A DNA stretch of 64,000 nucleotides from Candidatus Poribacteria bacterium (GTDB lineage: Bacteria; Poribacteria; WGA-4E; WGA-3G). Of this stretch, positions 9,024 to 57,234 are shown piece after piece (position 1 is the first letter of the stretch; every line of letters begins with the position of its first letter). Position numbers and translations under genes: made by a program. Below the pieces are notes generated by a model. It saw only the letters and a list, made by a program, of their open reading frames with translations, was not told where the DNA came from and did not search any database. The stretch lies in contig CAXXUA010000015.1 in NCBI GenBank assembly GCA_963663765.2, positions 512,303 to 576,302 on the forward strand, read 5' to 3'.

Positions 9024-9670
9024 CTAGTGTTTAGTCAACATACTATTGTAGGTCACGATTCGGAGATCGCTCCTACAGAAATCTTGTGTATTGTGTGTAT
9101 TGTAGGAGGGAACTCCGATTCCCGACTTCTTTTTAGACCCATCAATAAACACGTGACTAAGCACTAGTGTTTAGTCAACATACTATTGTAGGTTGAGATT
9201 CGGAGATCGCTCCTACAGAAGTCTTGTGTATTGTGTGTATTGTAGGAGGGAACTCCGATTCCCGACTTCTTTTTAGACCCATCAATAAACACGTGACTAA
9301 GCACTAGTGTTTAGTCAACATACTATTGTAGGTTGAGATTCGGAGATCGCTCCTACAGAAGTCTTGTGTATTGTGTGTATTGTAGGAGGGAACTCCGATT
9401 CCCGACTATCAAGGCGTTCAGTCGAGATTCGGAGATTGCTCCTACAGAAGTCTGGTGTATTGTGTATTGTGTGTATTGTAGGAGGGAACTCCGATTCCCG
9501 ACTACTTTTTAGACCCATCAATAAACACTTGACTAAGTGGTTCACTCTTTAAGTATTTACGATATATCTTCAATTGATGATCTACTGCTTAAACAGATGA
9601 CTACTGGGTTCTTCAGCATTGAACTTTTATTTTATGCTAAAATTAATTGCCGAAAGAACCACTAAGCACT
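9024..9670. repeat. Tandem 140-bp CTAG-bounded MITE units carrying REP-like hairpins, with a nested GTGGTTC...GAACCAC MITE at about 9537-9662
   Basis: CTAGTGTTTAGTCA...TGACTAAGCACTAG units start at 9024, 9164 and 9304; the nested element recurs inverted at about 56036-56160. Confidence 0.8.
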
Positions 9671-10519
9671 AATATATACGAGTTGTGCTAAATGACTTTA
9701 TGTAAACCATTGTTTCACATAAGCATAACGTTTTGCAGGTGTCCCTAATTGCAGGTGTCCCTAATAGGTTGAAACGATCTTCAGTCCTGTAGGGACTAAA
9801 TGTTTATATATCATACCCAATATATGTAAATTTAGTATAAACATTTAGTTAACTGGCACAAATCAGGATATTGCTCAATTTACGTTAAATTACTAATTGG
9901 TAAAATTGGTAATTTTTTCTTCGGAAAAACCCAGTCATAGACAAGAGTCGTGTACAGAAAAAATTACCAATTGCCTGAAAGTAGCGACTTGTACTAAATA
10001 ACTATTTATTAAACATTACTTCACATAGACAAGAGGATTTAACCGTCCTTCTTTTGCTTTGGATGATCTTTAGTCCCGTAGGGACGAAATGTTATATACC
10101 ATACCCAATATATGTGAATTTAGTATAAACATTTAGTTAACTGGCACAAGTCGTTAAATTAGGTAATTCTATCTAACTCACCTTGGTAGGCGGGGAATGC
10201 ATACCGTGTGAGAAATATTTATTACCGATTTAATATTTAATAATTTAATCTTCATTTAAGCGCGCTGGAAACCTAAAATATGCTGATAATTACATCATTT
10301 TTAACATACTTCTTGATTAAATCAAGAAAACTACGTAAGTCCCGTATTCATAAAGTACAAGACGCGAAATGACAGAATTGAGAAAATTACATTCCATTAC
10401 CATATTGAGTATGATATAATAACACAAGTTGCTAACTACAAAGTCTTAACTTGGAAACACTATCTATAATCAAATAAAGCTGATAATTAGCTTATATATT
10501 GTAGGGCAAACTTAGGTTA

Positions 10520-11669
10520 TAATACCATTTCCAATAGATTTATTCTCATTATTATTGTATAATATTTGACAAATTTTATTTAGAGAAAGGTAGTTTTCTA
10601 TGAACAAAAAAGTTCCTGATATTACAGAAAGTGTTAAAGAACTAAAATCCCTCATGAGCACCGCTAAGGATACGACTGAAAAAGACAAAATTCGTATGCT
10701 CTATCTACTAAAAAGCGGTGAAGCGAAAAATCGTATAGGTGTAGCCGCTTTGCTCGGTATGTGCCGAGAAACGATTGGCCAATGGTTATCCAAGTATGAA
10801 GCAAGGGGACTTGAGCAGTTGTTAGAACGCCGTTATGCTCCGGGACGCAAACCCTTTATGACACCCGATCAACTTGAGACACTCCGAGAAAAATTGAACG
10901 AACCAGAAGGTTTTAGCAGTTATGTTGAGATCCACCGATATGTCATTGAGACGTTTGGAGTTGAGATAAGTTATCAGGCGATTTATGCACTGGTGCATGA
11001 TAGATGGCATGCGAAACTCAAAGTGCCACGCAAAAGTCATATAAAAAAAACGCCGATGCAGCAGATGAGTTCGTAAAGAACTTTTCATCAGAAGTATTCT
11101 CTGCTATTTCAGAAAAGCGTTCCACTGGTCAGCGTGTTCGCCTTTTCTGTGAAGATGAAACCAGATATGGCACTTTATCGGACACTCATAGACGGATTAC
11201 CGCACGGGGTGTCAAACCTGTTGCCAAAATAGATTATACTTATGAGGCAGTTTATCTATATGGAGCTGTTGAACCCCTTACGGGCAAAGGGTGTTTTCTT
11301 GAACTCCCTTATCTGAATGCAGCCTGTTTCCAGATCTTTATAGACCATCTCAGTGAGACTTTTCCCGATACCCTAAATGTGGTGATCCTTGATAATGGTC
11401 GGTTCCATCACGCAAAAGCGTTGAAAGTGCCTGAAAACGTTGTCCTACACTTTCTACCTCCTTATTGTCCGGAATTGAACCCGATTGAGCGTCTGTGGCA
11501 AGATATCAAAGCAAAGTTATTTAGCAAAACATATCAAACCTTGAAACACATGCAAGAAAGCATCACACACATACTATCTGATTATTCTAACGATGTCATC
11601 GCAAAAATCACAGGGTTCTCGTATTTTATAAAAACTGCTAATGAGATATAATCAATTAGAATTGGTATA
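10520..11669 (+). mobile_element. IS630-family insertion sequence
   Basis: Ends TA-ATACCATTTCCAAT ... ATTAGAATTGGTA-TA; HTH ORF plus DDE ORF. Confidence 0.92.
10600..11651 (+). CDS. IS630 transposase (two ORFs joined by a probable -1 frameshift at A8, 11043-11050)
   Basis: orfA HTH ending KVPRKSH; orfB with FCEDE, ILDNG and LPPYCPELNPIERLW motifs. Confidence 0.9.
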
Positions 11670-11677
11670 ACATTACT

Positions 11678-12295
11678 ATGAGTATGTTTCGTGAACACTG
11701 GATTGGTGGTTTGACCGCTTACAGTGCTTTCTTTATTATATCGCTTATAGTAACAATTGCCATTTCTGTTGTTTACAGTAAACCGTTTGATTGGAATCCA
11801 ACGATTTCATTGGAACCCCTTCAAGTCCTTGGATGCTTCATTGTTTCGTTGCTATTTGGCTTATGGCCGGATGTAGATATAAAAAGCAAAAGCCAAAAGA
11901 TATTTTATACTGTCCTATTTGTCTTAAATGCGTTGCTTATTGTTGTTTTTCAAATGTACTTATTAGCATCAATTATAGGTTGCTTAGCCATGCTTCCTAT
12001 TTTAAGTAAGCATCGTGGTTGGACTCATTCAAAAATTACAATGTTCCTGCTCCCAAGTCTTTTTCTTGTGATTCCAATATATGTGAATTATCCTGATTGG
12101 GGTGAAAGATGGGAAACATTACCAGATTTATATGAATCTTTACTGACATGGGAGCACCTTCCTAATAGACTTCGCATTGGTTTTCCGTATTATCTTGCTG
12201 GTCTGATTGGTTATGCGTCACATCTCTATCTTGATGGCATCTTGTTCCGTTCACGTAAAGCCCAACAGCGGAAAGTACGGTCGAACAGGTCATAG
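11678..12295 (+). CDS. Membrane-bound metal-dependent hydrolase (YdjM/DUF457-like)
   Basis: FREH, WPDVD, HRGWTHS and SHLYLD motifs; several TM segments. Confidence 0.8.
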   Translation: MSMFREHWIGGLTAYSAFFIISLIVTIAISVVYSKPFDWNPTISLEPLQVLGCFIVSLLFGLWPDVDIKSKSQKIFYTVLFVLNALLIVVFQMYLLASIIGCLAMLPILSKHRGWTHSKITMFLLPSLFLVIPIYVNYPDWGERWETLPDLYESLLTWEHLPNRLRIGFPYYLAGLIGYASHLYLDGILFRSRKAQQRKVRSNRS

Positions 12296-12355
12296 CACCC
12301 ACTACCTAAAGGTAGGGGCTTGTGCTTCGTAGCAGTTAGCCTTATTTCTAAGGTC

Positions 12356-13477
12356 TTACATCTGCTCCACAACGGGATCATAAGCAGCCCGCAAGATATT
12401 GATAGCAGCGTTTATGTCTCTATCGTGTTCAGCATTGCAGTTTTGACATATCCACTGTCTATCATTGAGACAAAGGTTTTTATTAGAGTGTCCGCAGGTG
12501 CTACATGTTTTTGTTGTAGGTGTCCATTGCCGGACTTGAAGGAAAGTTTTAGTATGTTTGAAACACTTGAATTCCAACACTTGAATAAACTGATAAAACG
12601 CAAGGTCACTAATTTTTCGTCCCCAGAGTCGCTTCATACCATCAAGGTTCAACGTTTCAGTGACGATAGTATCAAAACGTCTGCAAAGGTCTGTAGCGAT
12701 TTTCCATTGCCAATCAAGCCGTTGGTTATTGATTTTGATGTGGAGCCTTGCGAGTATTCTGATAGCACGATACCAGTTATTAGAACCTTTGATTTTACGG
12801 CTCACGGCTTTATTCAGTTTGCGGAGGTGTTTCAAGGATTTTCTCAAGAATTCAGGTGCGGTTATTTTTTCACCATTACTCAAAGTCAAAAATGTTTTCA
12901 GTCCGAAGTCTATACCCACGCTCTCACCTGTTTGTTGCATAGGTTCGGTAGAAGTATCATCTGTGACGATATAAAGCCAGTATTCACCAGCACTATCACG
13001 GAGTATCTGGATATAGCGGACATTTCCGTGCCAGTGTCGGTGTTGGTAAAAAGAAAACCTGCGTTTGTCAAACTTCAGAGATTGTGTGGGTTCGTCCCAC
13101 GATTTAAAGGAGATACGCACACGTCCATTTTCAAGTTTATAGCCTGTTTGGAATTTGGCAGAACGATAACGATGTTTGCGCTTGAATTTAGGAAGTCCGC
13201 CTTGACACGCAAAGAAACGTTGGTATGCGTCATGGATACGGATAATCGCAGCATCCAAAGTGTCACGTGGTATCCATGCCCAGTGTTTTTTAGTCCGTTT
13301 CAACAACTTGGTAAGATGCGGTTGGAGTCTATACCTGCCAGCATATTTACCATATCTGCGGTAATAACGTTTTTCCAAACGAAGAAAGTGGTTGTGGACA
13401 TCAGCGAGATCGTCAAGCAGGTTGCCCAAGCGTTTGTTTTTAGAATGGTTGCGTATCTTATATTTATAGGTTCGCAT
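12356..13477 (-). CDS. tnpB: RNA-guided endonuclease TnpB
   Basis: RuvC GIDFGL / IVTETL / DRDINAA intact; zinc finger CSTCG..CQNC. Confidence 0.95.
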   Translation of the reverse strand: MRTYKYKIRNHSKNKRLGNLLDDLADVHNHFLRLEKRYYRRYGKYAGRYRLQPHLTKLLKRTKKHWAWIPRDTLDAAIIRIHDAYQRFFACQGGLPKFKRKHRYRSAKFQTGYKLENGRVRISFKSWDEPTQSLKFDKRRFSFYQHRHWHGNVRYIQILRDSAGEYWLYIVTDDTSTEPMQQTGESVGIDFGLKTFLTLSNGEKITAPEFLRKSLKHLRKLNKAVSRKIKGSNNWYRAIRILARLHIKINNQRLDWQWKIATDLCRRFDTIVTETLNLDGMKRLWGRKISDLAFYQFIQVLEFKCFKHTKTFLQVRQWTPTTKTCSTCGHSNKNLCLNDRQWICQNCNAEHDRDINAAINILRAAYDPVVEQM

Positions 13478-13618
13478 AGTTTACTCCAGCATAGTTCCCA
13501 ATACGATTTGGTTGTGGTAGAGACCACGTCAGGAGACGTGGATCGTATTCTCTACCACCTATGCTGATAGTAGTTTAAGATATTGACATATATTTGTCAA
13601 GAAAAAAGAGCGGGCAGG

Positions 13619-14933
13619 CAGGGTTATTTAGTTTTAGGAGTTTTGGTTGTTTTTTATCACAATCGTTAATATTTTTGGATATGCAGATATAGCGTGATTT
13701 ATCGCGCTATATCTGCTATACTTCACCTAAAAAATCTTACCTTTGAGGTGAAAAATGCCAGAGAAAAACTCTCGACACTTGTTAGATAGATTAGCAGAAA
13801 TCCAAGACCCGCGCAACAATAAAGGAAAACGACACCCATTGAAATCAATCATCGGACTTAACATTATTGGTTTTATGACTGGACATAAAGGATATACATC
13901 CATCGCAACTTGGGCCCGAACCCAACCAGACCTCGCAAGAACACTCGGTTTTACACATAAGAAAACACCTTGTCCCGCAACAATACATAATGTTCTAAAA
14001 GATTTAGATGCTGATGCTGTTGAAAAGACATTTACAGACTGGGTAGAAGACGTTTGTCAAAGTCGACCTGATTTAGAAGGTTGTCTTGACGCAGTCGCTA
14101 TAGACGGTAAAACGATGCGTGCCAGTAAGAAAAGTGGTGCGACAATAAGCCATTTACTCTCTGTTGTGTCTCATGAGTTAGGCGTCACACTTACACAAAA
14201 AGGTGTCAGTGATAAAACCAACGAAATACCGATCTCAACAGAGATCCTCAAAAACTTTGATGTGAGTGGTAAAGTCATCACAACAGACGCACTTTTGACA
14301 CAGCGACCATTCTGCCACGCCATCATAGAGGGTAATGGAGACTATGTGCTCCCTGTCAAAAAGAACCAACCGGACCTTTACGATGAGATCCAAAAACTCT
14401 TTCAAGACGTTCCAGACACGCTTTCTGATAACACACCACATCCTAAATTGGGAGCCCCTATTTACACTCACGAGACTTCTGAAAAATCACATGGTAGAAT
14501 AGAGACAAGGTGTTTGAAAGCAAGCACAAGTCTCAACGCATATCTGGATTGGCCAGGTATAGCACAAGTGTTCCAATATCGTTATACTTACAAAAATACG
14601 AAAACAGGAGAAGAAAAAACCAAAATCCATTATGGTATTACAAGTCTGACACCCGAAGAAACTTCTGCCCAACGTTTACTTGAGCTACGCCGTGGGCATT
14701 GGTCAATAGAGAACAAGTCGCATTGGATGCGTGATACACAACTTGGAGAAGACGCATCGTCTGTCCGATGCGGTGCTATTCCACAAATCATGGCTGCTTT
14801 GCGAAATACAGCATTAGCAGTGTTGCGATTTGCTGGGATAACGCGTATAGCAGATGAGATAAAATACTTAGCTTCAAAACCTAAACTCGCAGTTAACTTG
14901 ATAACTGAGAGTTTTTAAAACTAAATAACCCTG
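13619..14933 (+). mobile_element. ISAs1-family insertion sequence
   Basis: Perfect 18-bp TIR CAGGGTTATTTAGTTTTA; 9-bp TSD GCGGGCAGG at 13610-13618 and 14934-14942. Confidence 0.95.
13755..14918 (+). CDS. ISAs1 transposase
   Basis: DPR..GKRH, AIDGKT, KTNEI, TTDALLTQ, VKKNQP, HGRIETR and RGHWSIEN motifs. Confidence 0.95.
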   Translation: MPEKNSRHLLDRLAEIQDPRNNKGKRHPLKSIIGLNIIGFMTGHKGYTSIATWARTQPDLARTLGFTHKKTPCPATIHNVLKDLDADAVEKTFTDWVEDVCQSRPDLEGCLDAVAIDGKTMRASKKSGATISHLLSVVSHELGVTLTQKGVSDKTNEIPISTEILKNFDVSGKVITTDALLTQRPFCHAIIEGNGDYVLPVKKNQPDLYDEIQKLFQDVPDTLSDNTPHPKLGAPIYTHETSEKSHGRIETRCLKASTSLNAYLDWPGIAQVFQYRYTYKNTKTGEEKTKIHYGITSLTPEETSAQRLLELRRGHWSIENKSHWMRDTQLGEDASSVRCGAIPQIMAALRNTALAVLRFAGITRIADEIKYLASKPKLAVNLITESF

Positions 14934-14983
14934 GCGGGCAGGAGACCCAAACCTAAAGGATTGGGTCTCCTGCCCGAAGATTG

Positions 14984-18421: not shown

Positions 18422-18490
18422 TTTATTCTTGTCCTATGCATTGGAAGAAACTACATCTGGATAATACTAATGCTTCTTTGAATAATGTAC

Positions 18491-18931
18491 TAATACCAAT
18501 TCTAATAAATCTTGTCTCATTAAGGAATTCTACTGTTTACTGGCAGGGGGTTACTCTCTTCGGTAGGAGGGACCTCCCGGTCGCGACCGTGATGTCGCTC
18601 CTACCAGATTTCCGCTGCTAATGAGACATTATTATACCAATTCTAATAAATCTTGTCTCATTAAGGAATTCTACTGTTTACTGGCAGGGGGTTACTCTCT
18701 TCGGTAGGAGGGACCTCCCGGTCGCGACCGTGAGGTTGCTCCTACCAGATTTCCGCTGCTAATGAGACATTATTATACCAATTCTAATAAATCTTGTCTC
18801 ATTAAGGAATTCTACTGTTTACTGGCAGGGGGTTACTCTCTTCGGTAGGAGGGACCTCCCGGTCGCGACCGTGAGGTTGCTCCTACCAGATTTCCGCTGC
18901 TAATGAGACATTATCACATGAAAATGGTATA
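18491..18931. repeat. Three tandem 141-bp units of an IS630-ended MITE carrying a REP doublet
   Basis: ATACCAATTCTAAT at 18493, 18634 and 18775; closes AAATGGTATA; internal GTAGGAG..CTCCTAC. Confidence 0.9.
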
Positions 18932-18935
18932 ACAA

Positions 18936-19727: not shown

Positions 19728-19881
19728 TGATGTAAAGATGCATAGGCGTCAATTTAAGAACAGGACTTACGCACCCAACGGTACGCGGGGAATACCTAAA
19801 TAAGCATGCGCGTATGGCATGCTCCATGATTCATACCCGAAGAATACCATAAGGTATTCATACCGATGATTACTTGATTTT

Positions 19882-20412
19882 GTGCTTTGTAAGCGCGCCC
19901 CCCAACTACCCCCCAACTGCAGGCGTGCTTTGTAAGCGCGCCCCCCAACTGCCCCCTAACTGCAGGCGTGCTTTGTCCGCGCACCCCCAACTGCCCCCCA
20001 ACTGCAGGCGTGCTTTGTCCGCGCACCCCCCAACTGCCCCCTAACTGCAGGCGTGCTTTGTAAGCGCGCCCCCCAACTGCCCCCCAACTGCCTCCCAACT
20101 GCCTCCCAACTGCCCCCCAACTGCAGGCGTGCTTTTTAAGCGCGCCCCCCAACTGCAGGCGTGCTTTGTCCGCGCGCGCCCCAACTGCCTCCCAACTGCA
20201 GGCGTGCTTTTTAAGCGCGCCCCCCAACTGCAGGCGTGCTTTGTCCGCGCGCGCCCCAACTGCCCCCTAACTGCAGGCGTGCTTTGTCCGCGCGCCCCCC
20301 AACTGCCTCCCAACTGCAGGCGTGCTTTGTCCGCGCACCTCCCATGGTAGGCGTGCTTTGTAAGCGCGCTGGCACATCATATCCCAACAGAGCGCTTACA
20401 AACCACGCCTAC
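19882..20412. repeat. GC-rich tandem array of CTGCAGGCGTGCTTTGT(AAG/CCG)CGCGC units with CCCCAACTG linkers
   Basis: About 10 full copies plus a terminal REP-like doublet at 20347-20412. Confidence 0.95.
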
Positions 20413-22027: not shown

Positions 22028-22043
22028 GGTCGTAACAATAAAA

Positions 22044-22834: not shown

Positions 22835-23056
22835 CAGGGTTATTCAGTACTAAAAGTTTTCTGTTATTGAGATTTACTGAAAGTTAATACCCAAATGAGG
22901 TTTCCTAACTGCACCTTATACATCAATTTTAGATTATTGAAACATGAACATCGGTCTTTAGTCCCTACGGGACTAAAGAACTGGACAAGATGGCAACACA
23001 TAAAATTAACGACATAGCAAAATAATATCAAATATATTGAAAACTGAATAACCCTG
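22835..23056. mobile_element. MITE with ISAs1-type ends
   Basis: CAGGGTTATTCAGT ... ACTGAATAACCCTG; internal TTTAGTCCCTACGGGACTAAA hairpin. Confidence 0.8.
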
Positions 23057-24201
23057 GAGGGTGTGTAAAGTTTTTTCACAAACTGTTCATTCTCCATTGC
23101 AGGCGTGCTTTGTAAGCGCACCCCACCTGCAGGCGTGCTTTACAAGCGCACCCTGTGCTCACCTGCCCCCCACTGCATGCGTGCTTTGCAAGCGCTCCAT
23201 AACAGACGCACCCCCTACCTGCAGGCGTGCTTTGTAAGCGCGCCCTGTGCTCACCTGCCCTCCCACTGCAGGCGTGCTTTGTAAGCGCGCCCTGTGCTCA
23301 CCTGCCCTCCCACTGCAGGCGTGCTTTGCAAGCGCTCCATAACAGACGCCCCCCACCTGCAGGCGTGCTTTGTAAGCGCGCCCTGTGCTCACCTGCCCTC
23401 CCACCTGCAGGCGTGCTTTGTAAGCGCGCCCTGTGCTCACCTGCCCTCCCACTGCAGGCGTGCTTTGCAAGCGCTCCATAACAGACGCCCCCCACCTGCA
23501 GGCGTGCTTTGTAAGCGCGCCCTGTGCTCACCTGCCCTCCCACCTGCAGGCGTGCTTTGTAAGCGCGCCCTGTGCTCACCTGCCCTCCCACTGCAGGCGT
23601 GATTTGCAAGCGCGCCCTGTGCTCACCTGCCCCCCACTGCAGGCGTGCTTTGCAAGCGCGCCATAACAGACGCACCCCCCACCTGCAGGCGTGCTTTGTA
23701 AGCGCACCAGAACAGATGTGCCCCCACTGCAGGCGTGCTTTGTAAGGGCGCTCCCCACCTGCACAGGCGTGCTTTGTAAGCGCGCTCTTGTAACAGACAC
23801 CGAGTGTGTAAAGTTTTTGCACAATCTACTCATTCTCCATTGTAGTGCGGTGTCTCTGTACCCCGCTTTTGTTTTCACTCATCAGATATAAAGAAAACCA
23901 TCCAGTTTCTATCAAATATTGCTTGCCGTTAGGGAACTGTGGACATCGTAGGGGCGAGGTCTCCTCGCCCGCATTAGCCTCTGTTCGGGCGGGGAGACCC
24001 AGCCCCATAGGCGTCAATTTAAGGGTTTTGACCTCTTGTAGGAGGGGTTTTCAACCCCGATTTGAGAGAAATTGAACATAAAATCGGGGTTGAAAACCCC
24101 TCCCACAAGAGAAAATGCCAACACTTTTTTCTTAAATTGACCCCTATGGGGCGGGGAGACCCAGCCCCTACGGCATAGTAACCAAAACTATACACACCCC
24201 T
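23057..24201. mobile_element. Composite MITE with ISKra4-type ends containing a 16-copy repeat array and a nested MITE
   Basis: GGGTGTGTAAAGTTTTT ... AAAACTATACACACCCC matches the TIRs of the ISKra4 at 50784-52255. Confidence 0.7.
23098..23786. repeat. 16-copy GCAGGCGTGCTTTG(T/C)AAGCGC array with a 139-bp higher-order period
   Basis: Counted by eye; two recurring linkers, CCTGTGCTCACCTGCCCTCCCA and CCATAACAGACGCCCCCCA. Confidence 0.95.
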
Positions 24202-32097: not shown

Positions 32098-32252
32098 TAC
32101 CATTTCCATGTGACAATGTCTCATTGCAGCGGAGATCTGGTAGGAGCAACCTCCCAGTCGTGACCGGGAGATTACTCCTACCGAAGAGAGTGACCTTCAA
32201 CCAGTAAACAGTGGAATTCCTTAATGAGACAAGATATATTAGAAATGGTATA
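32095..32252. mobile_element. IS630-ended REP-carrying MITE (reverse orientation)
   Basis: TAATACCATTTC...AGAAATGGTATA; reverse-complement homolog of the 18491 unit. Confidence 0.85.
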
Positions 32253-33729: not shown

Positions 33730-33923
33730 CAGGACTTACGCACTAAATGGTAGGCGGGGAATGCCTAAATGGCATTCATACCGTTGATTTGGGGGAATGC
33801 CTAAATGGCATTCATACCGTTGATTTGGTGCTTTGTAAGCGCGCTGGCATCCAATAAAATCCTGAAAATTACGCTATTTTCGTTATAATATTTTATTAAA
33901 TCATGAAAACTGCGTAAGTCCTG
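33730..33923. mobile_element. MITE with CAGGACTTACGCA ends
   Basis: Perfect 13-bp TIR flanked by AACAA on both sides; related ends at about 7404/7513, 10344, 19761 and 24350/24533. Confidence 0.8.
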
Positions 33924-35044: not shown

Positions 35045-35048
35045 GCTA

Positions 35049-43562: not shown

Positions 43563-43573
43563 GGTCAATCAAA

Positions 43574-44761
43574 ATGAAAAACCTATTCCTTAAAGACATG
43601 CGTTACCGTCAAGCACGGGTAGTGTTAACTGCAATTGGCATCACTGTGCTGATTTCACTGATTCTGTTGTTGGGTGGTATCATGAACGGGATGCGTATTC
43701 AAGCACAGCAGTACGTAAAATCTACAGGGGCGGACATCTGGATTTCTGCAGAGGGTTCTGGTGGTGCGTTCATCGGGTTTTCCCTTTTGATAGAAGAAAC
43801 AATGGCACCATTGAATGCATCTAAAGACTTTGAAGAGGGAACTGTGTCCCCGCTTATTTTTGCTCAAGCACAACCGAAAATCCGAGAAAAAAACACTAAA
43901 GCTATTGTTGTTGGATATCAGTTAGGGAAACTTGGTGGACCAAAAAACGTTGTTGACGGTAGAATGTTTCAATCCAGCGAATATAAGGACTATCGTCCAG
44001 AAGATCCAGTTCCGCATGAAGTAATTGTAGATGAAAAAATGGGACTTGAAATCGGAGAACAAATTACCATCGGAACAGAAACCGTTAAGGTTGTTGGAAA
44101 AACCAGTAGTTTGATGTTTGTTTTAGATACTCCCCTACTATTTATGGATATTCGCGTTGCACAACAAGTACTGCTTGGGAACTATCCGCGTGTAAATATG
44201 ATGATTGCCAAGGTAAACATGAAACAGGAGTTAGCTAAGGTCACTGCAAATTTTGATGCTTCCGATGCGATTGAAGTACGTACTGTAACACAAACACTCA
44301 AAGACATTATCGGATATTATGTTGATGAACCGATGAAAGCGGTACAATTTCTACGGGTCATGTTGTGGTTGGCGGCTGGTTTGCTTGTTGGGATGATTAC
44401 TTATGTGACCATGTTGGAAAAGACGCAGGAAATTGGTGTGCTAAAAGCCATTGGCGCATCAAATAGATATGTGATGGCATTGCTGCTAAAACAGGTTGCA
44501 ATTATCTCTGTTGTTGGTGTTGTTGCAGGATTTTGTCTTTCCTATATATTCGCTGCAGCTGCACCCATTTTTGTTTCAATACATTTGGTTGAATCCATCA
44601 TCGTAGCTATTATTAGTTTTATTGTTTGTTGTGGTAGTGGTTATCTTGCCGCACGTAAGGCAATTATGGTCGATCCAATGATTGCATTCCGCGGTGAGAT
44701 TGATAGCGGAATGTCCAAACCTAATCCAAGTCTTCAAACTTTAGTTTACGATGAAGTTTGA
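43574..44761 (+). CDS. ABC transporter permease (MacB/FtsX type)
   Basis: N-terminal TM, periplasmic domain, EIGVLKAIGA, DP..AFR. Confidence 0.92.
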   Translation: MKNLFLKDMRYRQARVVLTAIGITVLISLILLLGGIMNGMRIQAQQYVKSTGADIWISAEGSGGAFIGFSLLIEETMAPLNASKDFEEGTVSPLIFAQAQPKIREKNTKAIVVGYQLGKLGGPKNVVDGRMFQSSEYKDYRPEDPVPHEVIVDEKMGLEIGEQITIGTETVKVVGKTSSLMFVLDTPLLFMDIRVAQQVLLGNYPRVNMMIAKVNMKQELAKVTANFDASDAIEVRTVTQTLKDIIGYYVDEPMKAVQFLRVMLWLAAGLLVGMITYVTMLEKTQEIGVLKAIGASNRYVMALLLKQVAIISVVGVVAGFCLSYIFAAAAPIFVSIHLVESIIVAIISFIVCCGSGYLAARKAIMVDPMIAFRGEIDSGMSKPNPSLQTLVYDEV

Positions 44762-44773
44762 GAAAATAACAAA

Positions 44774-45530
44774 TAATACCAATTCTATGTGATAATGTCT
44801 CATTAGCGGAGGAGATCTGGTAGGAGCGACCTCCCGGTCGCGACCGGGAGGTCGCTCCTACCGAAGAAAGTAATCTCCAACCAGTAGTAAACAGTGGAAT
44901 TCCTTAATAAGACAGGATTTATTAGAAATAGTATAATAATTCATTGATAAAGAAGTTGATATATCGGGTTTGAAAACCCACTCATAAAATTAACTCAGGG
45001 TTATTCAGTTTTAGGTGTTTTTGATGAGATTTTACTATAACGTTAATATTATGTGTTGCCATATTGTCCATGTCTTTAGTCCCGTAGGGACGATATGTTT
45101 ATAGAAAAAAGTTATCTACCCCTCTTGAGTTCCGTAGGAACGGCATATAAGAATAAACATATCGTCCCTATGGGACTAAGAACTGGAAAGGGTACTCGTA
45201 TTCTATAAACATATCGTCTCTACAGGACTAAAGACCGATGTTCAGGTTTCAATAATCTAAAATTGATGTGTGGTGTCAAATCAAGAAATCAACGGTATGA
45301 AATGCCTTGGGCGAATACGCGTATGGTACTCGCCATAAGACCCCGGGTGGTAATCGCTATGATTCCCCGAGTCTCTGTGCCTGTCCATTGTTTCCTTTTT
45401 GAATACATGGCGGGACACGGAGACACCGCCCTACAATGTGCGACTGGATTTATCGCTTAAATCGATACCTATGGTGCGGTTAGGAAACCGCACCTACCAC
45501 AATGTTATGGTAGTTTTAGATTTCACTATA
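44774..45530. repeat. Nest of MITEs/REPs (IS630-ended at 44774-44935; ISAs1-type end at 44996; several hairpins)
   Basis: Shares ends and hairpins with other copies in the window. Confidence 0.8.
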
Positions 45531-45549
45531 ATACTTTGAGGCATCTGTT

Positions 45550-47627: not shown

Positions 47628-47633
47628 ATTCTT

Positions 47634-49529: not shown

Positions 49530-49685
49530 TACCAATTCAAATAAATCTTGTCTCATTAAGGAATTCTACTGTTTACTGGCAGGGGGTTACTCTCCTCGGT
49601 AGGAGCGACCTCCCGGTCGCGACCGGGAGGTCGCTCCTACCAGATTTCCGCTGCTAATGAAACATTATCACATGAAAATGGTATA
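49527..49685. mobile_element. IS630-ended REP-carrying MITE
   Basis: TAATACCAATTC...AAAATGGTATA; homolog of the 18491 unit. Confidence 0.88.
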
Positions 49686-49694
49686 AGTTGTCAT

Positions 49695-50546
49695 TCACGG
49701 CTTATCTGCTATTTCTTGAAGTCTATTCAGTATCTTCAATGCAACTTGATGAGACGCATCTTCATTGAATTCCTCAACTGCACTCCCTCCTCTGTATAAG
49801 TTTCCTCTATAATACCTTTGAAATATAAAGTATGTCCAAAGTGCTGCATCAATGTAATTCCCTTCCAGTACTGTATCTACTGTAACATATCCGAGCACTC
49901 CATTTAACAATAGTGCGTTAATCCCACTACTCCATTTTCCTGCATACATCTGTCCTGCGCCTGGAATGACTGCAGAAAGCACTTTTGCAAATCGGATAGA
50001 TTTTTGCGGTAGATTTTCTGCTTCTTCTAATAGTCGGTTAAGTTCTTCATCATTTGTATAGTACTGTAATGTCTCGCGCGCCTTCATCCATCGGAACTGA
50101 TAGATATTTGACACTGCCTGCAAAAAGAGTGAACGTTTCGTTTGAGTATTATCTGCATTTCGCAGCATTACTTTAATCAGTTCTAACCTTGCAAGATCGT
50201 AGTGCTTTGCAGCAATCAATATCACAGCTAAATCAAGTTGGTATTCCGATTTCTCTTTCAGTGTTGTGGCATGCAGCATAGCATTACGCATGGCAACAGT
50301 AGCGTCTTGAAACAATCCTTGTTCTCTAAATGCAAGTCCGATTTTATGATATGTTTCGGCTGCCCGATTATCTTCAGGATTAAAAAACAGAAACCGTTTG
50401 TATTCTGTTATTGCAGCATCGTAGTTTTCCACTGCAAAAAAATGGTTACCAATTGCAATAGGGTCTTCCATTGCAAAAGAAGTTATGTTGATGCAAGAAA
50501 TTGGGATGATAATAGAGGTAAGGAGAATGTAAAGTTTAGACTTCAT
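49695..50546 (-). CDS. TPR-containing membrane-associated protein
   Basis: Signal peptide, TPR pattern, SAVIPGAGQMYAG motif. Confidence 0.8.
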   Translation of the reverse strand: MKSKLYILLTSIIIPISCINITSFAMEDPIAIGNHFFAVENYDAAITEYKRFLFFNPEDNRAAETYHKIGLAFREQGLFQDATVAMRNAMLHATTLKEKSEYQLDLAVILIAAKHYDLARLELIKVMLRNADNTQTKRSLFLQAVSNIYQFRWMKARETLQYYTNDEELNRLLEEAENLPQKSIRFAKVLSAVIPGAGQMYAGKWSSGINALLLNGVLGYVTVDTVLEGNYIDAALWTYFIFQRYYRGNLYRGGSAVEEFNEDASHQVALKILNRLQEIADKP

Positions 50547-50571
50547 ATAGGTAATATAAAGGAATATAAGA

Positions 50572-50708
50572 TATAGTGGATTTTAGAATTATTTTTACAC
50601 TTTCAGGTGTAGGAGGGAACTCCGATTCCCGACTATCAAGGCGTTCAGTCGCGATTCGGAGATCGCTCCTACAGAAGAAGTCTAAACTTAATTGTATATT
50701 TCACTATA
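50572..50708. mobile_element. MITE with TATAGTG...CACTATA ends carrying a REP doublet
   Basis: REP pair at 50609-50672 nearly identical to 9382-9445. Confidence 0.7.
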
Positions 50709-50783
50709 AAAAGTGAATCATATTTTTCGCATGTAATAGATAATAATACTAATGGATAAATATGTCAAGTTGAATTCAGAAAA

Positions 50784-52255
50784 GGGTGTGTAAAGTTTTT
50801 ACACAGATGATTATGCGGCTTTTGTGTTTGGATTCCAGTATTTATCTCAACCACAATTTTTCAACAGACATCGCATTTTTAGCACAGCATTGATACCGGG
50901 TTCCTTCCATCTCATTGAAGCTTGTTTACATCTTTGTCCAACAACATGTTTACAAGCACTTTCAATCACACCATTTCCGAACTGATACCCTTTTTCTCTA
51001 AACGCTGAATACCGCATACGGTTCGCATGCTTTTCAAAATACTTCGCTTCTCTGTCTAAGATAGCAGCAACTTCCGGGTTATGTAGTCCTAAACCACGGA
51101 TGCGTGAGGCAACTTCTGGAATGTTGCCATCATAAAGGAAAGGTTCTGTCTCCTTTACCCAAGTTTCTATGGCTTCTGTTTCTGTCTCCCTATAGACAGC
51201 TTTCGCAACATTATACAAATGAGATGTGGTGTGCATGTAATCTACAATCTCTACAGCATTCGGAAAGTATTCTTTCGCAATGTTCCAAATCCACGCCGCA
51301 ACATCACCAATAAACACAACCTCTTGAGTATCTATATCTTCTTGATAGATACCACAACTTGTCGCTAACGCATATAACGCCTTACCAAAACGAGCCGCAT
51401 CATTACGACTTGCCACATAACCAATACTTGATGTTCTCGCGTGTGATATCGCATCAGGACTATTTGGTGGTCGTGGATAATCTCTGTAAACACATCCCGC
51501 TTTCACTTCTTTCCATCCATCAGGAGCGTTCGTATAACACCCATCACAACTCACATACCAACGCTGATTTTTCTCAAGCTTTTGTGTAGACACTTCTTCA
51601 GGGATATTCAAATCCGTAGACATCTTTCCCACGATTTGATGGAGTGTCGTCCGACTCACTTTTATCCCTTGGCGCAACAACTCGTCTGCTGCTTCCCGGA
51701 AGTCAAGACGCGCCGCAAGACGACACATCATCTCAGCAACACGATGCGTCCATTTACCTATCAACTCTTGTTTATCATCCCATATCACATGATAATGACC
51801 TGACGCACAACCATACACCCAACGCTCTACATCAATATCAACACAAAGCGTCGTAATACGAAGTTTTCTTTTATATCGTCGACGACATTCTTGATTACAT
51901 TCAGGACATGTTACAGGTTCACTCGGTTCTTCACATGCTTGATGAGAGATATATATCTCAAAAATCTTTTGACAGATAAGACTAAATCCCTCAAAGACAC
52001 GAGACTCTGCTTCTGACAATGATGTGTAAGGATCAGAAAATAATTCATTAGCAAACACACTTATTGCTGTTACAAAACTTTCACACGCTTCTTGATTTAC
52101 ATTGATTTTACTTCGATCTAATGTTATATTAATCATCGGTATCCTCTCGTAAAATTGAGTAAGATTATTAAGTTTATTTGGAAAGGATACCTTTTATCTA
52201 TATACCTCGCAACAACTAACCAAAAATAAGACTTGTGCAAAAACTTTACACACCC
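50784..52255 (-). mobile_element. ISKra4-family insertion sequence (degenerate)
   Basis: TIR GGGTGTGTAAAGTTTTT(A/G)CACA at both ends; no TSD visible. Confidence 0.88.
50811..52136 (-). pseudogene. ISKra4 transposase with a late nonsense codon
   Basis: SCDG, WKEVK, GD.A.WIW, VDYMH and IESACK motifs; TGA at 50847-50849 followed in frame by DKYWNPNTKAA*. Confidence 0.75.
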
Positions 52256-52586
52256 GAGACTACTCATTGCCAATAAAACTTTAAAATAGTATGCAGTAGA
52301 CAGGTCAATATTATACCGTATCGTTAAGTAATGTTGTGTTTGTTAGGTGGAGACGACATAAAATCAGACATGTGGAATTATACGTGAAGTTAATGTTTTC
52401 AAAAGATTTTAACATTTTCCAACATTCTTACAATGTTGTGTAATCGGGCTTATATGACGTTGTACACAGTTTTCGCTAATGACACAGACTTATACTGAAA
52501 ATCGACCTATCTCTTAAGATCCAAAACTGATAATTTTTAAAACTATTGGTATCCTTTGTAAAACAAAATCAGTTGTTCTCGCTATC

Positions 52587-55500
52587 TTATACTGTATCAC
52601 TGTTTTTCTGATCTGGAAGTGAATACACACCTCTCTGAACCTTTACAATCTCACCGTTATCTAAGAGGCGTTTGAGTTCATTTTTTATTGCTGTTGGATG
52701 TCCCTCAATGCCTTCCCTCAACTCTACTGTCTTTTTCTGACTATCGGCAAGTAAAGAAAAGATCTGATCTCTGATTGGAACTCGTAAGAGTTTACCACCC
52801 CTAAACTTTCGCAATACACGGTTAGCCGTACTTATAGAACATCCCAAGACCTGCTGAACTTTGTCTCTACCGGAGTCGGCGTTTAGGTTATCACGTTCTG
52901 TTTCATAATGTTCGCGTTTGGCTATTGTTTCAGCAAGTTTGTCTAACCCACCAGCAACCTCAAAATCTTCCCAGTCAAAAAGGAGTGTTTCAGGTCTATC
53001 GGTAATATCTGTGAGTGGGAAGCTTGTTACCAAGACAACCTTTTTATTCGGCATACGGGTCAAACCTGTAAGACCTATAATATTTTTAAGTCTAACGGTA
53101 ACGAGTGTTTGATATACACTCTGGACACGTTTGTCTTTATAGCGTATAGGTTCTGTTTCTCTTTCATAACAGAGAGGTTCCTCGTTATTCCCAAACAAAA
53201 TCTGCGCTCGCCGCCAAATGATACCGGGTGGCAAAGGAGGCGTGCCAACTATCCAAACGACTTGTGGTTCTTCAAAAGCAGTTTCCAAACCGTGTAACTG
53301 TTCAAAAGCTGTTATGAAACAGACGTTCTCAAGTTCCGAGATGTTTTCCAAGTGTTTAATTGCTAAATTATAAGTGATAATTGCATGCTTAACGCTTGGA
53401 TCACGTTCAATTTCTGATCGAATGTTGAGAAAAAAACGTTGTCCTATTTTAGACATTCTAATAACGTCCCAACTGTCGTAATAATCTAATATAGTTTCTA
53501 ATGGATAAGTGCCCGTGCGAATTTGGAAAACTTGATTTCCCTTGTTCCAGGCTGCTGGTTCAATGGGAACATAATCGATTTCTTCATCTGGAAATGCCCT
53601 ACGTACATTCTGTTCGGAAAGGATTGATGACATTAACAAAAGACGTTTGATGCTCGGATGCAGCACGGGTGGCACCCAGAACCATAACACATCAAAATGC
53701 ACTATCATCGGAGCATCCGCATCCGTTGTGTAGTATGATAAGTAATATTTTAATTGATGCCACAACGTCCAATGTGGATACTGACACACAGCGGGGAATT
53801 GCTGAATACTTTGGACGGATTCTGTGTTCAAGATACCTAATTGTATAGCTTTCGCCATCGGCATTGGGATGTTTATGTCTTTGTTAACCGCAAAAGTGTC
53901 AAGTTTGAAGTGTGGTAATCCTTTTGTCTCAAGTTTATACATGGCATTATTGTCCAATGGAATGTAAGCAGAAACACCACCTTCAAATTCAATGGAAAAC
54001 TGTGCTAATTCCTCTCCTGTTATGACATCAACATATCCGCGACTGATAATCTTACCTTGCATCTTCACTTGACACATCTGTTTAACAAGTTCTGCTTCGT
54101 GTCGTTGAAACGCCTGCACGGCTGTGCGAATCCGCCCGACTACATTTTCATTTGGGTTATTATTCATTTCTAACGCATGCAGTAGTGCTTGGGCAAATTG
54201 TCCTAATACATCTTCTTGCCAGTTGATACTCCATTCTTTTAATGTCTTTATTGGGATAAAACATTCAATAAAAAAACTATTGGGGTATACTTCATCTATA
54301 ATACAAAGCCGTTCTTTTCCATCATCTTGTTCAAGGAATTTTTCTACGATTTCTGTGTATTGTGGATCGAAAAACTGATAACGAGTTCCTGATATTTGTG
54401 CATTTACGTTGTTTAATCTGGCAGGTTGTGATAAATAGCCGCGTTCTTGGCATTCGGTATAGACGGGACATTTCGGACAGATAATTTCATCAGGATTTCC
54501 GCCTCTTTTCTCAAGTGCATCGCATCTTTCAAAATCCTCACAGACATTTCCGTGTTGGAAGGGGTTCGCCATTCGCGCCTCAACTGGTATATCTTTCACC
54601 TTGTTCCAGTTGTGTCTCCGCGCCCGCCAGCGTTCAATCGGTTGGATGTTTCGCTTTTGAAAGTGTCGGACGACTTCTTCAACTGTCCAGAACGCAGCAT
54701 TTAAACTAATGGCACTGCCGTTGAGAACATAAGACCCTGCTGAAAATGTTTTTCCCGCCCCTCTTTCGGCATTTAATACAGTAATACGCGCAGTGCTGTC
54801 ATAGACGCGTTGTATCCGAACTGTATTCTGTTCGAATGTGTCATAATTCTTTTTCTTTTGTTCCGGCTTTATCAGCACGGGTAATGGTCGTATTAATGCC
54901 AAGGGACTCAAATTGCCTTCACGGATAGCGTTCAGATTGTCGGATATCGGCAGAGCAGTAGTGGGTAAAATACCGGTATCATCCCAGATATCTGTAATAG
55001 CCACAGCATCTGTAGGTAACCCGATGTTAGGCGTTGATGCACGTACCCAAACGGTGTCTTCAGATTCCCATACAAATATGATGGCGTCGTCAGTTTTAGG
55101 GTCGTGTTGGCTCCAGCAATGATAACCGTTCTCTTGCTGAACATAAGTAAAACTGCGTTTCAAAAATGCCTCTTTTGCGAGATCAAGATTATATGAACCT
55201 AAGGATACCGGCGTAATAGTGGCAGGTATCGCGTTGACCTTTAGACTTTTTTCTTCAGATGGTTGCGGTTCATGAAGGGCATTCTGCAGAGTGTTGATAG
55301 GAGCAAAAAGCACCTCTTTTGTAATAATGGGTGGATTTAACAGATTTCCAAGCAGAATTTCGTAGCGGGAATCCCATCGGTTGTACCCCTCTTCCGCAAA
55401 GATTTCAAGATATCGCTCTCGTTGATTCGGATTTTCCGGGGTAGGTGTATGCTTATAGATATATTGCTTTGCATCTTCAGTTTTTGAATGTAAATAATTT

Positions 55501-55991
55501 AGAACCCTACAAGAAAAACGCAAACCACCGGATTTTGTCAATGTTAAGAGTGGATTTGCAACAGCGTTGACAAGTTTCTTAATACAGAGAAGAACAGTAT
55601 CAGGTGCAGTACATAGGGCATTGTATGAAAAATTGAGGTCGTGCCATTGTGCACCATCGCGCCCGGACGGTGTGCCAGTATACACCTGAATTCCCCATGA
55701 TGCATCCCAATGTCTAATCTCCCAATCTTCAATACCTTGGCGTTTTGTAAATCGTTCACCGTCAAAAGACCTTGGACCATAATCGTGTTGAGGGGCACGT
55801 CCTATCGGCATAAAGGAAATAGACGCTTGTTCCAAGTCATAGAGTCTCACAGGATATCTATGTCCGCAATAGACTGTGAAGTGATAAGGAAGACCCTTGT
55901 AGGGTGCGGGTGTGATGATTGTTTTCCGCTGTCTAAGCGGTTTCTTGTGCCGCTGATGACAACGTTCAATAATATTATCTAATGTATTCAT
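52587..55991 (-). CDS. Large hypothetical protein: primase-like N-terminus, P-loop helicase-like core, C-terminal HTH
   Basis: LTKSGGLRF; AERGAGKT; Cys cluster C..C..CPKC..C; CIIDE; wHTH-like tail. Confidence 0.6.
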   Translation of the reverse strand: MNTLDNIIERCHQRHKKPLRQRKTIITPAPYKGLPYHFTVYCGHRYPVRLYDLEQASISFMPIGRAPQHDYGPRSFDGERFTKRQGIEDWEIRHWDASWGIQVYTGTPSGRDGAQWHDLNFSYNALCTAPDTVLLCIKKLVNAVANPLLTLTKSGGLRFSCRVLNYLHSKTEDAKQYIYKHTPTPENPNQRERYLEIFAEEGYNRWDSRYEILLGNLLNPPIITKEVLFAPINTLQNALHEPQPSEEKSLKVNAIPATITPVSLGSYNLDLAKEAFLKRSFTYVQQENGYHCWSQHDPKTDDAIIFVWESEDTVWVRASTPNIGLPTDAVAITDIWDDTGILPTTALPISDNLNAIREGNLSPLALIRPLPVLIKPEQKKKNYDTFEQNTVRIQRVYDSTARITVLNAERGAGKTFSAGSYVLNGSAISLNAAFWTVEEVVRHFQKRNIQPIERWRARRHNWNKVKDIPVEARMANPFQHGNVCEDFERCDALEKRGGNPDEIICPKCPVYTECQERGYLSQPARLNNVNAQISGTRYQFFDPQYTEIVEKFLEQDDGKERLCIIDEVYPNSFFIECFIPIKTLKEWSINWQEDVLGQFAQALLHALEMNNNPNENVVGRIRTAVQAFQRHEAELVKQMCQVKMQGKIISRGYVDVITGEELAQFSIEFEGGVSAYIPLDNNAMYKLETKGLPHFKLDTFAVNKDINIPMPMAKAIQLGILNTESVQSIQQFPAVCQYPHWTLWHQLKYYLSYYTTDADAPMIVHFDVLWFWVPPVLHPSIKRLLLMSSILSEQNVRRAFPDEEIDYVPIEPAAWNKGNQVFQIRTGTYPLETILDYYDSWDVIRMSKIGQRFFLNIRSEIERDPSVKHAIITYNLAIKHLENISELENVCFITAFEQLHGLETAFEEPQVVWIVGTPPLPPGIIWRRAQILFGNNEEPLCYERETEPIRYKDKRVQSVYQTLVTVRLKNIIGLTGLTRMPNKKVVLVTSFPLTDITDRPETLLFDWEDFEVAGGLDKLAETIAKREHYETERDNLNADSGRDKVQQVLGCSISTANRVLRKFRGGKLLRVPIRDQIFSLLADSQKKTVELREGIEGHPTAIKNELKRLLDNGEIVKVQRGVYSLPDQKNSDTV

Positions 55992-56253
55992 CGGTTGAAA
56001 AAATAGTGGTATTAGACATCCTCAATTATTTCTAAGTGGTTCATTCGGCAATTAATTTTAGCATAAAATAAAAGTCCAATGCTGAAGAACCCAGTAGTCA
56101 TCTGTTTAAGTAGTAGATCATCAATGGAAACATATAATAACTACTTAGCAAGAAAACCACTAAGTATCGAACCTTGGATTTTAATGTAATACAAATGTTA
56201 GAAATTAATTATACATATTACCAAAAAAACCTGTTTTAGTCAAGGTCAGCTTT

Positions 56254-56778
56254 CAAGGTTATTTAGTTGAGGGGTGTGCATAAATAAATTTGATTCTAAA
56301 CTTATGTCGTAGGTCGGGTAGAACGCAGTGAAACCCGACACAATCGTATCAAGTCTTGTATGTCGGGTTTCGCAAACTCTACCCGACCTACAAAATCTTG
56401 TCCTTTTTGCGTCCTTTTTGCACTAAGAATGGTGCCCATCCACATGAAGAAGTTTGTGACGTGTGTCACCATCTATGTTGATCCAGCGATTATTTATGCA
56501 CACCCCTCATTTAGTTTTAAGTATTTCCAGACTAATAATTTACTGAAAGTTGACATCTAAGCCGTTAGGTGCGGTTTCCAAACCGAACCGTCTTTGTACC
56601 AATTACCTTCTTAGAGGTTCTCGCGTAGGATCCGGTTCGGTTAGGGGAAACCGCACCTAACGGCACTGAAGGACGCTAAATTGACACCCATGGTGCGTTT
56701 AGGAAACCGCACCTACCGGCTTGAGGAATTTAGCGTCCGTGAAATAACACAAGATAAACCCAAAACTAAATAACCTTG
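56254..56778. mobile_element. ISAs1-ended MITE with a nested GAGGGGTGTGCATAAATAA-ended MITE (56269-56508)
   Basis: Outer CAAGGTTATTTAGTT...AACTAAATAACCTTG; inner perfect TIR with 8-bp TSD ATTTAGTT. Confidence 0.85.
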
Positions 56779-57021
56779 TTAGACAGCACAGTGTAAAAAG
56801 GTTCACTGTGCCACGTCATGTCTGACATACAACAGTTGGCATAGAGAACCACCGCTACAATGAGATAGAAGACTTGCCGCTTGATACGCTCTGTGAGATG
56901 GACTGTATATCAAAATTGATACATCCGCTGACAATATAGTAATAAATAATCATAATATAATTAAATATGAATATATTATAACTTGACTTAATAGGACTAT
57001 TTAAATATAATTATTATATTT

Positions 57022-57234
57022 ACGACTTGTGCTAGTTAACATTCATTATGTCTATAATTCACATTTTTGTCTCATCGATGTTTGAATTCCTTTAATTTCA
57101 GGCGTATGTCGGTCTCAAATGTAGGAGTGAACTCCGATTCCAGACAATAATAAATCGCGATTCGGAAATCGTTGATACAGAATATAGACACTTGTGAAAA
57201 CCAACAAAACTATCAGATAAATAGCACAAGTCAT
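57022..57234. mobile_element. MITE with GACTTGTGCTA ends carrying a decayed REP doublet
   Basis: TIR GACTTGTGCTA/TAGCACAAGTC; TATATTT on both flanks; relatives at about 9679-9863 and 9985-10153. Confidence 0.7.

Follow-up and report, generated by a model that had tools for sequence, protein, structure and literature searches.

How does one short hairpin doublet come to lie inside several kinds of mobile-element ends? [quoted passage not shown] GTAG-tagged REP hairpins normally depend on their own tyrosine transposase (REP-associated tyrosine transposase, RAYT, of the Y1/HUH class). An initial annotation of the window had suggested a two-tier mobility system, in which REP doublets enter or are captured by IS ends and are then spread by DDE transposases. 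We followed this suggestion through the assembly that contains the window (G000; 6.35 Mb in 15 contigs, 97.8% complete), the genome of what we take to be a sponge symbiont, and through the sister genomes G003, G006, G010, G014 and G016, the last being the closest (approximately 86-87% identity in flanking genes). The two-tier interpretation was supported by this analysis, and neither of the outcomes that the initial annotation had named as refuting it (REPs no commoner inside inverted pairs than elsewhere, or a lack of empty sites) was observed. We assign a probability of about 0.7 to the reading that the window samples a genome-wide population of composite non-autonomous elements, each consisting of a wrapper of IS-like ends and a cargo of REP units, with mobility at two tiers.

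REP units inside inverted ends

The doublet that raised the question is formed by two family B units in head-to-head orientation. It had been described from three different wrappers of the window, and matching located it in all three: intact in a CTAG-type and in a TATAGTG-type wrapper, and decayed in a GACTTG-type wrapper (Table 2). The first half of the doublet gave six matches in the window, exact at 9102, 9242, 9382, 9478 and 50609 and with 2 mismatches at 57121, and none in 100 shuffles of the window; the second half gave 12 matches at up to 3 mismatches, versus 0.01 expected. Analysis of DNA folding, with z scores taken relative to shuffled sequences, revealed a hairpin for the intact doublet (-17.8 kcal/mol, z = -5.0) and none above the shuffles for the decayed copy (z = -0.5). 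The family A palindrome and the family C doublet of the window also formed hairpins (z = -8.2 and z = -9.7, respectively), and the entire TATAGTG-type element formed a single long hairpin whose tip carries the family B doublet. At least eight end types had been recorded around GTAG-led hairpins in the window. The types are present, but the ISKra4-type ends of the window do not form an inverted pair; those at 23059 and 23802 have the same orientation, with a family D array between them. Three end types had also been matched to autonomous ISs of the window, and this held for the IS630-like, ISAs1-like and ISKra4-like elements, which were recognized by their Pfam domains and share end patterns with the wrappers.

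We then extended the search to the whole genome using nine unit motifs with up to 3 mismatches. This revealed 4,553 REP-like units in 1,899 loci, and the commonest 14- and 16-mers of the genome all derive from a few short repeat families. The tag stands at the start of the unit in families A, B, C (partly as GTGG), D (as GTAG or GCAG), G and H, and the units fold strongly, with z scores of -5 to -10. Family D is the most abundant repeat of the genome (approximately 1,500 units). The 194 loci of family B comprise 67 simple head-to-head doublets with a 14-nt spacer, 29 tail-to-tail doublets with a 25-nt spacer and 50 single units, the remainder being arrays or mixed. Families A and C occur as palindromic doublets, and families D, G and H mainly as single units or arrays. 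Loci outside wrappers overlapped an open reading frame (ORF) of at least 120 amino acids in 148 of 1,164 cases.

The surroundings of the units were examined by clustering the 50 nt that adjoin the cargo edge to the left and right of each locus; flanks of 120 nt with single-linkage clustering had collapsed into one component. Both flanks belonged to repeated families at 1,389 of 1,897 loci, one flank at 369 and neither at 139. REP-like units in this genome are therefore rarely naked, and dispersal in unique intergenic DNA applies to just the 139 loci at which both flanks are unique. Two family B doublets that seemed naked proved to be part of an element of approximately 100 nt that is repeated in sister genomes. 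The flanks of these two doublets were multi-copy in G016, G003 and G014, where the doublet together with approximately 20 nt on each side was itself repeated.

A wrapper-by-cargo matrix, which the initial annotation had proposed as a check, was built by searching for nine end types independently and pairing inverted ends within 600 bp. This analysis yielded 833 pairs, 739 of which hold at least one listed unit (Table 1). The matrix shows that one cargo occurs in several wrappers, family A in four and family B in three or four, and that one wrapper carries several cargos, the ISAs1-type above all. Composite families could also be read from the flank clusters. Their consensus sequences span 85-500 bp, have sharp ends and contain no ORF, and several of them carry a single REP unit rather than a doublet. 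Within families the junctions between wrapper and cargo are fixed, being identical over tens to hundreds of copies.

Table 1. End types of composite elements in the genome: cargo held by the inverted pairs, direct repeats just outside the ends, and composite families obtained from clustered flanks.
End type	Pairs	Cargo (number of pairs)	Direct repeats (pairs)	Composite families (loci)
IS630-type	157	A 153, AG 1, none 3	3 bp, T-N-A (111/157)	with A (148)
ISAs1-type	103	EF 48, A 18, C 9, E 3, D 2, H 2, G 1, none 20	9-10 bp (48/103)	with A (74); with E/F (41)
ISKra4-type	38	EF 31, CEF 3, DE 1, A 1, none 2	8-10 bp (17/38)	
TATAGTG-type	83	B 77, B-containing mixes 3, H 1, CD 1, none 1		with B (56, plus 22 with G module)
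CTAG-type	41	B 41		with B (about 41)
CAGGAC-type	246	D 126, G 56, DG 6, others 3, none 55	5 bp (146/246)	with D (111)
CATAGG-type	112	C 107, D 1, CE 1, none 3	21-23 bp (72/112)	with C (112)
GACTTG-type	16	E 7, B 3, CE 2, DE 1, none 3		
H8-type	37	H 30, none 7	3 bp, T-N-A (35/37)	short form, with H (43)

Movement of whole composites and the state of their RAYTs

Evidence that wrapper and cargo move as one unit came from target-site duplications, related ISs and empty sites. Duplications were resolved for six of the nine end types, that is, for all except TATAGTG, CTAG and GACTTG (Table 1). The duplication of 21-23 bp made by the CATAGG-type is unusually long, and this element often duplicates a stretch of 21-22 bp that is a REP hairpin. 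Partner ISs were identified for three of the nine end types; the genome holds 3 full-length copies of the IS630-like IS (99.8-100% identity), 11 of the ISAs1-like IS (98.6-100% identity) and 1 of the ISKra4-like IS.

Filled and empty sites, the comparison of which had likewise been suggested, were analyzed for the IS630-type composites at 32098-32250, 44777-44933 and 49530-49683 (the array at 18494-18929 and the other end types lie outside this set). All three were missing at the orthologous sites of G016. At the first and the third site G016 has one copy of the 3-bp target versus two in the window, and at the second the composite-filled spacer (44756-45544) is replaced by a short one (Table 2). 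Dozens of diverged copies of the IS630-type composite are present elsewhere in G016, and weaker copies were found in at least 5 further genomes of the genus. Searched in 40 genomes of the genus, the exact core pattern was present 117 times in G000 and in no other genome; given the diverged copies in G016 and other genomes, only the exact subfamily is species-specific. Between a Ham1-family gene and the EF-P gene, where the window carries a CAGGAC-type element, the spacer of G010 is short and those of G006 and G003 contain other composites, and the corresponding place in G016 has unrelated genes and no composite. Copies of the IS630-type had a median pairwise identity of 94.8%, those of the TATAGTG-type 94.2% and those of the H8-type 96.6%, and the remaining types lay at 87-91%, which suggests that the copies within families are fairly young. 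The composites thus combine inverted ends, a length of 85-500 bp, the lack of an ORF, target duplications of fixed length and filled versus empty sites, as MITEs do.

The cargo was traced to RAYTs by a Y1_Tnp search of the genome. Of its six hits, three belong to IS200/IS605 elements that also carry TnpB, and a fourth to what is left of such an element; three RAYT loci emerged when the remaining hits were combined with a search in which the first RAYT protein was the query. RAYT genes flanked by these REPs had been proposed as something to look for, and they were found: one gene has family B units on both sides, and family D and family A units precede the other two. The intact gene (G000:C4:621598-622074) encodes 159 amino acids and passes the Pfam cut-off for Y1_Tnp. 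Its best relative of solved structure is Escherichia coli TnpA-REP (4er8, E = 3.4e-7), with the HUH and Tyr motifs aligned, and the family B units on its two sides form arrays. Directly downstream, an array of more than 1 kb (G000:C4:622100-623400) contains approximately 35 family B units at a spacing of 30-40 nt. The closest relatives of this RAYT in named genomes are from Candidatus Poribacteria metagenome-assembled genomes (MAGs; 94%, 88% and 65-48% identity), followed by Verrucomicrobiota. A cyanobacterial origin, to which GC content and repeat load had seemed to point, is rejected on these grounds. The 94% and 88% orthologues, in two Poribacteria MAGs, have family B units alongside, and more distant homologues (48-50% identity), from other Poribacteria, have family H units on their flanks.

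The other two RAYTs of the genome are broken. The one at the end of contig C10, preceded by family D arrays, is frameshifted and cut by the contig end. The one at C5:1704569 is a 35-amino-acid N-terminal fragment preceded by family A units and cut off by an ISAs1-type composite that carries E units. No family H RAYT was found in G000, where the closest match to the H-type homologues is the family B gene, and no RAYT for families C, E or F was found there. Three of the four RAYT-linked families (A, D and H) accordingly have no intact RAYT in this genome. Judged by their sequences and neighborhoods, the cargo families are genuine REPs and putative partners of RAYTs.

A further layer was provided by family G, a hairpin module of approximately 36 nt with 635 cores in the genome. 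In CAGGAC-type composites the G modules lie within D units, in the TATAGTG-type within the B doublet (in its second half) and in the IS630-type within A units. They are positioned at or near the GTAG tag with no duplication, and often occur in tandem or with further hairpins in their own loop. The secondary composites that carry them are multi-copy, for example 24 CAGGAC-type pairs of approximately 158 bp and 22 TATAGTG-type loci. By these features family G appears to behave like a very small mobile module without a known enzyme. In the window, family G modules occur at 33750-33830 and 7558-7644.

A probable two-tier explanation and its rivals

The explanation we favor has the following steps. 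RAYTs would copy REP units by a single-strand, hairpin-guided route, giving rise to arrays and doublets near the RAYT gene. A few rare founding events would then have left a single REP unit, or a doublet, flanked by two IS ends; as candidate routes of entry, a REP could be captured as filler when the gap left by excision is repaired, could insert into an IS that then loses internal sequence, could insert into the hairpin of a MITE, or could arrive by recombination at shared units. DDE transposases of the IS630-like, ISAs1-like and ISKra4-like elements and of further ISs would copy wrapper and cargo together in trans, each presumably acting on the elements whose ends we assign to it. Later, family G modules would enter REP units within wrappers, and the resulting secondary composites would be amplified in turn. 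The RAYT tier is suggested by the adjacency of RAYTs and REPs and by what is known of the REP family. At the level of sequence comparison the second tier is well supported: targets are duplicated, partner ISs exist for three end types, sites are empty in a sister genome, junctions are fixed, and families whose RAYT is broken or absent have young copies. Spread without a working cognate RAYT is indicated because the RAYT of family A is a stump and that of family H is absent, yet the composites of these families are 94.8% and 96.6% alike. We tentatively extend this explanation, with less confidence than we place in the two tiers, to REP families that outlive their RAYT by hitch-hiking at MITE rates, with A and H maintained chiefly by ISs and with family G as a third tier, giving three-level selfish nesting. 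If this were so, it would suggest that MITEs preferentially recruit abundant hairpin DNA as filler when they arise.

Several observations weigh against the two-tier explanation. REP loci are denser within wrappers (5.9 per kb) than in the remaining DNA that lies outside ORFs of at least 120 amino acids (1.08 per kb), but this ratio of approximately 5.5-fold is biased upward because wrappers were partly discovered through the flanks of their cargo; the three end types defined by autonomous ISs, of which 274 of 298 pairs hold cargo, are independent of this bias. In a strict test of low power, just 13.8% of 1,895 loci had long inverted flanks that rose above the 99th percentile of random positions, and many D, B and G units form tandem arrays that no wrapper encloses. 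The IS630-like IS and the MITEs share nothing but their ends, and these are only approximately 81% identical. IS630 elements typically target TA (2 bp), and the duplication of the IS630-type composites is instead a 3-bp T-N-A. No partner IS was found in G000 for the TATAGTG, CTAG, CAGGAC, CATAGG, GACTTG or H8 ends. With an assembly of 15 contigs and 97.8% completeness, a missing or broken RAYT could reflect an assembly gap or a homopolymer error. Finally, contigs from four public runs (X1, X4, X6 and X7) break inside composites, and none bridges an empty site.

Wrapper and cargo might instead have met many times over, by repeated RAYT-driven insertion into the hairpin centers of existing MITEs, so that the pattern would reflect choice of target and not co-amplification. 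The G modules, which entered three host units (A, B2 and D) at or near the GTAG tag, are what such targeting would look like, as is the TATAGTG-type composite, a long hairpin that carries its doublet at the apex. Wrappers of this type were never seen truly empty; when the pairs were matched more loosely, 8 of 100 lacked listed cargo and all 8 held other GTAG hairpins. Repeated insertion is nevertheless improbable in our view, given that the wrapper-cargo junctions are identical over tens to hundreds of copies, that species differ by the whole composite with its duplicated target and not by the cargo alone, and that families A and H, with RAYTs that are broken or missing, have composites of 95-97% identity. 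A different account, to which we give about the same low standing, treats the composites as a recombination mosaic, with REP units serving as portable homology at which unequal crossing-over, gene conversion or template switching swap half-wrappers and give rise to arrays, so that one cargo would appear in many wrappers with no capture step. Chimeric loci with half-wrappers of two kinds around one shared unit do exist, for example A units between an IS630-type and an ISAs1-type half and B units between an IS630-type and a TATAGTG-type half, as do hybrids of a CTAG-type spacer and a TATAGTG-type arm, and tandem arrays of fused units are common. Such chimeras nonetheless make up only 13 of the 674 loci with both flanks assigned (2%), and the major composites have distinct arms on both sides together with target duplications; dispersed insertions with empty sites would stay unexplained.

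The hairpins could also be retained for a selected function, whether for the MITE (transposase loading or end synapsis) or for the host (terminators or RNA stability). The strong folds, the hairpin unit in 739 of 833 end pairs and the location of the elements between genes are all compatible with this. The cargo varies under the same ends, however, and ISAs1-type pairs may hold any of seven cargo classes or, in 20 of 103 cases, none. A listed unit is also missing under strict matching from 55 of 246 CAGGAC-type pairs, although most of those sampled keep diverged D or G units and one pair of 58 bp was without any unit, and an Rfam search of the window gave no family at gathering score. We therefore regard a selected function as an unlikely general cause. 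Each of these accounts covers part of the data, and none covers the insertion of whole composites with duplicated targets.

Known systems and other features of the window

REP-RAYT and MITE-IS relationships are both well known, and isolated precedents have been published. REP and REPIN (REP doublet) systems are described as GTAG-tagged palindromic units with inverted doublets and a Y1/HUH gene among its own units (PMC3116915, PMC3733652). The present repeats resemble them in their GTAG units of 23-28 nt, their hundreds of copies, their hairpin doublets and the RAYT amid its own units, and in the orthologous RAYTs of sister genomes that are flanked by the same units. Unlike classical REPs and REPINs, which lie in unique intergenic DNA, they are found mostly in larger repeats with inverted ends and target duplications, and three of the four RAYT-linked families are without an intact RAYT. 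Bacterial MITEs are mobilized in trans by IS transposases (Delihas 2011, PMC3184786), and the composites are like them in being small and gene-free, with inverted ends (IS-like for three of the nine end types), target duplications and filled or empty sites between related species. They differ in that their interior is made of REP units from another transposase system, a design common to at least nine end types. The interior is not a deletion remnant of the parent IS, since the composites have nothing but their ends in common with it.

The nearest precedents are dimers of GTAG-15 in long palindromes of Anabaena variabilis, where no empty palindromes were found, and dimers of CGTC-1 in 41-bp palindromes of Halothiobacillus neapolitanus (Di Nocera 2013, PMC3733652). 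In the available part of that account the embedding was set aside and the outer sequence regarded as a target palindrome. The TATAGTG-type wrapper resembles the Anabaena case, being a REP dimer in a conserved outer palindrome with none seen that lacks a hairpin; as far as that source goes, IS ends, target duplications, empty sites, multiple wrapper families and RAYT decay are shown only here. The composites also recall bacterial interspersed mosaic elements (BIMEs) through their alternating REP orientation, conserved spacers and tandem expansion. Enterobacterial BIMEs are mosaics of REPs with conserved linkers and are not known to have IS-like terminal inverted repeats or target duplications. 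The composites differ from them in possessing both. BIMEs are named in the abstract of PMC2817692, and REPINs were considered as possible building blocks of more complex repeats in a speculation by Bertels and Rainey (2011; PMC3116915). In heterocystous cyanobacteria, modules of approximately 21 nt are reported to be inserted precisely in other short repeats (PMC4390886, PMC13756078, PMC2884548). Family G modules inside REP units are similar in this respect, in another phylum and with sequences that are unrelated as far as they can be compared. ISPpu9 of Pseudomonas putida targets REP sequences (PMC12288879). There too IS ends are joined to REPs, and ISs and the CATAGG-type element of the present genome also insert in REP units; unlike ISPpu9, where the IS lies inside the REP, the REP here lies inside IS-derived ends.

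The two kinds of element have been treated as distinct classes with a thousand-fold difference in rate, REPINs being vertically inherited, linked to a single-copy RAYT and slow, with ~1e-8 duplications in each generation, and MITEs being fast (~1e-5), short-lived and parasitic on ISs (bioRxiv 10.1101/2021.07.10.451892). With most REP units of this genome lying within MITEs of several IS families, two separate systems are joined. Such a junction would offer REP families a route of escape from dependence on their RAYT and would account for REP families without one, and counts and population models of REPs and REPINs would be open to confounding by bursts of MITEs. The approximately 830 composites of one genome, together with dozens of sister genomes, form a data set on the origin of MITE interiors. 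The literature searched for Poribacteria together with MITE, REP, RAYT, insertion sequence or inverted repeat gave no account of such repeats, nor was one found of REPs enclosed by ends from various IS families, combined with target duplications and decayed RAYTs. The finding is of moderate interest, to students of bacterial mobile DNA, and is readily testable by experiment and population sequencing.

Table 2. Autonomous ISs, wrappers and REP arrays of the window. Some boundaries were counted by hand and may be in error by a base or two.
Feature	Position	Strand	Remarks
Tandem array of ~3.7 units of 140 nt, CTAG-type wrapper	9024..9540		family B units tail-to-tail; head-to-head doublet 9382-9445
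GACTTG-type wrapper	9985..10152		GTAG-containing E-like hairpin inside; boundaries approximate
Autonomous IS630-like IS	10523..11667	+	two overlapping ORFs, HTH + DDE_3; 3-bp direct repeat outside
Autonomous ISAs1-like IS	13619..14933	+	DDE_Tnp_1_assoc + DDE_Tnp_1
IS630-type wrapper, three units in tandem	18494..18929	+	family A palindromic doublet in each
Family D tandem array	19839..20412		outside any inverted wrapper pair
ISAs1-type wrapper	22835..23056		E-like hairpin inside
Second family D tandem array	23084..23785	+	between two same-orientation ISKra4-type ends
CATAGG-type wrapper	24003..24151		family C doublet 24038-24106; direct repeats ~20 bp outside
IS630-type wrapper	32098..32250	-	diverged family A doublet; site empty in G016
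CAGGAC-type wrapper	33730..33923		two G modules + one D unit; spacer short in G010
IS630-type wrapper	44777..44933	-	family A doublet; 3-bp repeat outside; 788-bp spacer is 84 bp in G016
ISAs1-type left end, then E, F, E, E units	44996..45290	+	right end not found; right boundary approximate
IS630-type wrapper	49530..49683	+	perfect family A doublet 49599-49640; 3-bp target duplicated; empty in G016
TATAGTG-type wrapper, 137 bp	50572..50708	+	family B doublet 50609-50672 at hairpin apex
Autonomous ISKra4-like IS	50784..52255	-	UPF0236 match; sole full-length copy
ISAs1-like variant wrapper	56254..56778		inner inverted-repeat pair, GTAG-led long hairpin, two family H units
GACTTG-type wrapper	57024..57232		decayed family B doublet 57121-57178

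From its missing right end, the ISAs1-type element at 44996-45290 is truncated or further nested. The two family D arrays have periods of 32-47 nt and are crossed by spurious ORFs of 90-174 amino acids. The transposase of the IS630-like IS (10600-11651) is split into two overlapping ORFs, an HTH part and a DDE_3 part, in all three near-identical copies, which may reflect a programmed frameshift or a shared defect. The direct repeats of CATAGG-type elements start with GG and end with CC, and what they duplicate is in many cases a hairpin from another repeat family.

Candidates considered as partner ISs for the orphan end types included L021, which proved to be an IS4/Tn5-like IS inserted in a CATAGG-type composite, within a family C unit and with an 8-bp duplication. 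The candidate at G000:C5:745180-746796 was another IS, inserted in an IS630-type composite, with a 450-amino-acid ORF and its own inverted ends; its end sequence has 152 copies among the frequent k-mers and probably marks another MITE family. L022 was a glycoside hydrolase gene between two MITEs, and L019 and L020 gave no clear result.

Two copies of a ThsB-like TIR-domain gene with its downstream DNA lie at 155-727 and 7755-8390, 7.7 kb apart and 97-98% alike, and a third ThsB-like TIR-domain gene on another contig adjoins a DDE transposase. The last part of the window (57987-63999) encodes WD40-repeat proteins, whose genes contain coding repeats of 126 nt in tandem, and a dockerin/FlgD-Ig protein.

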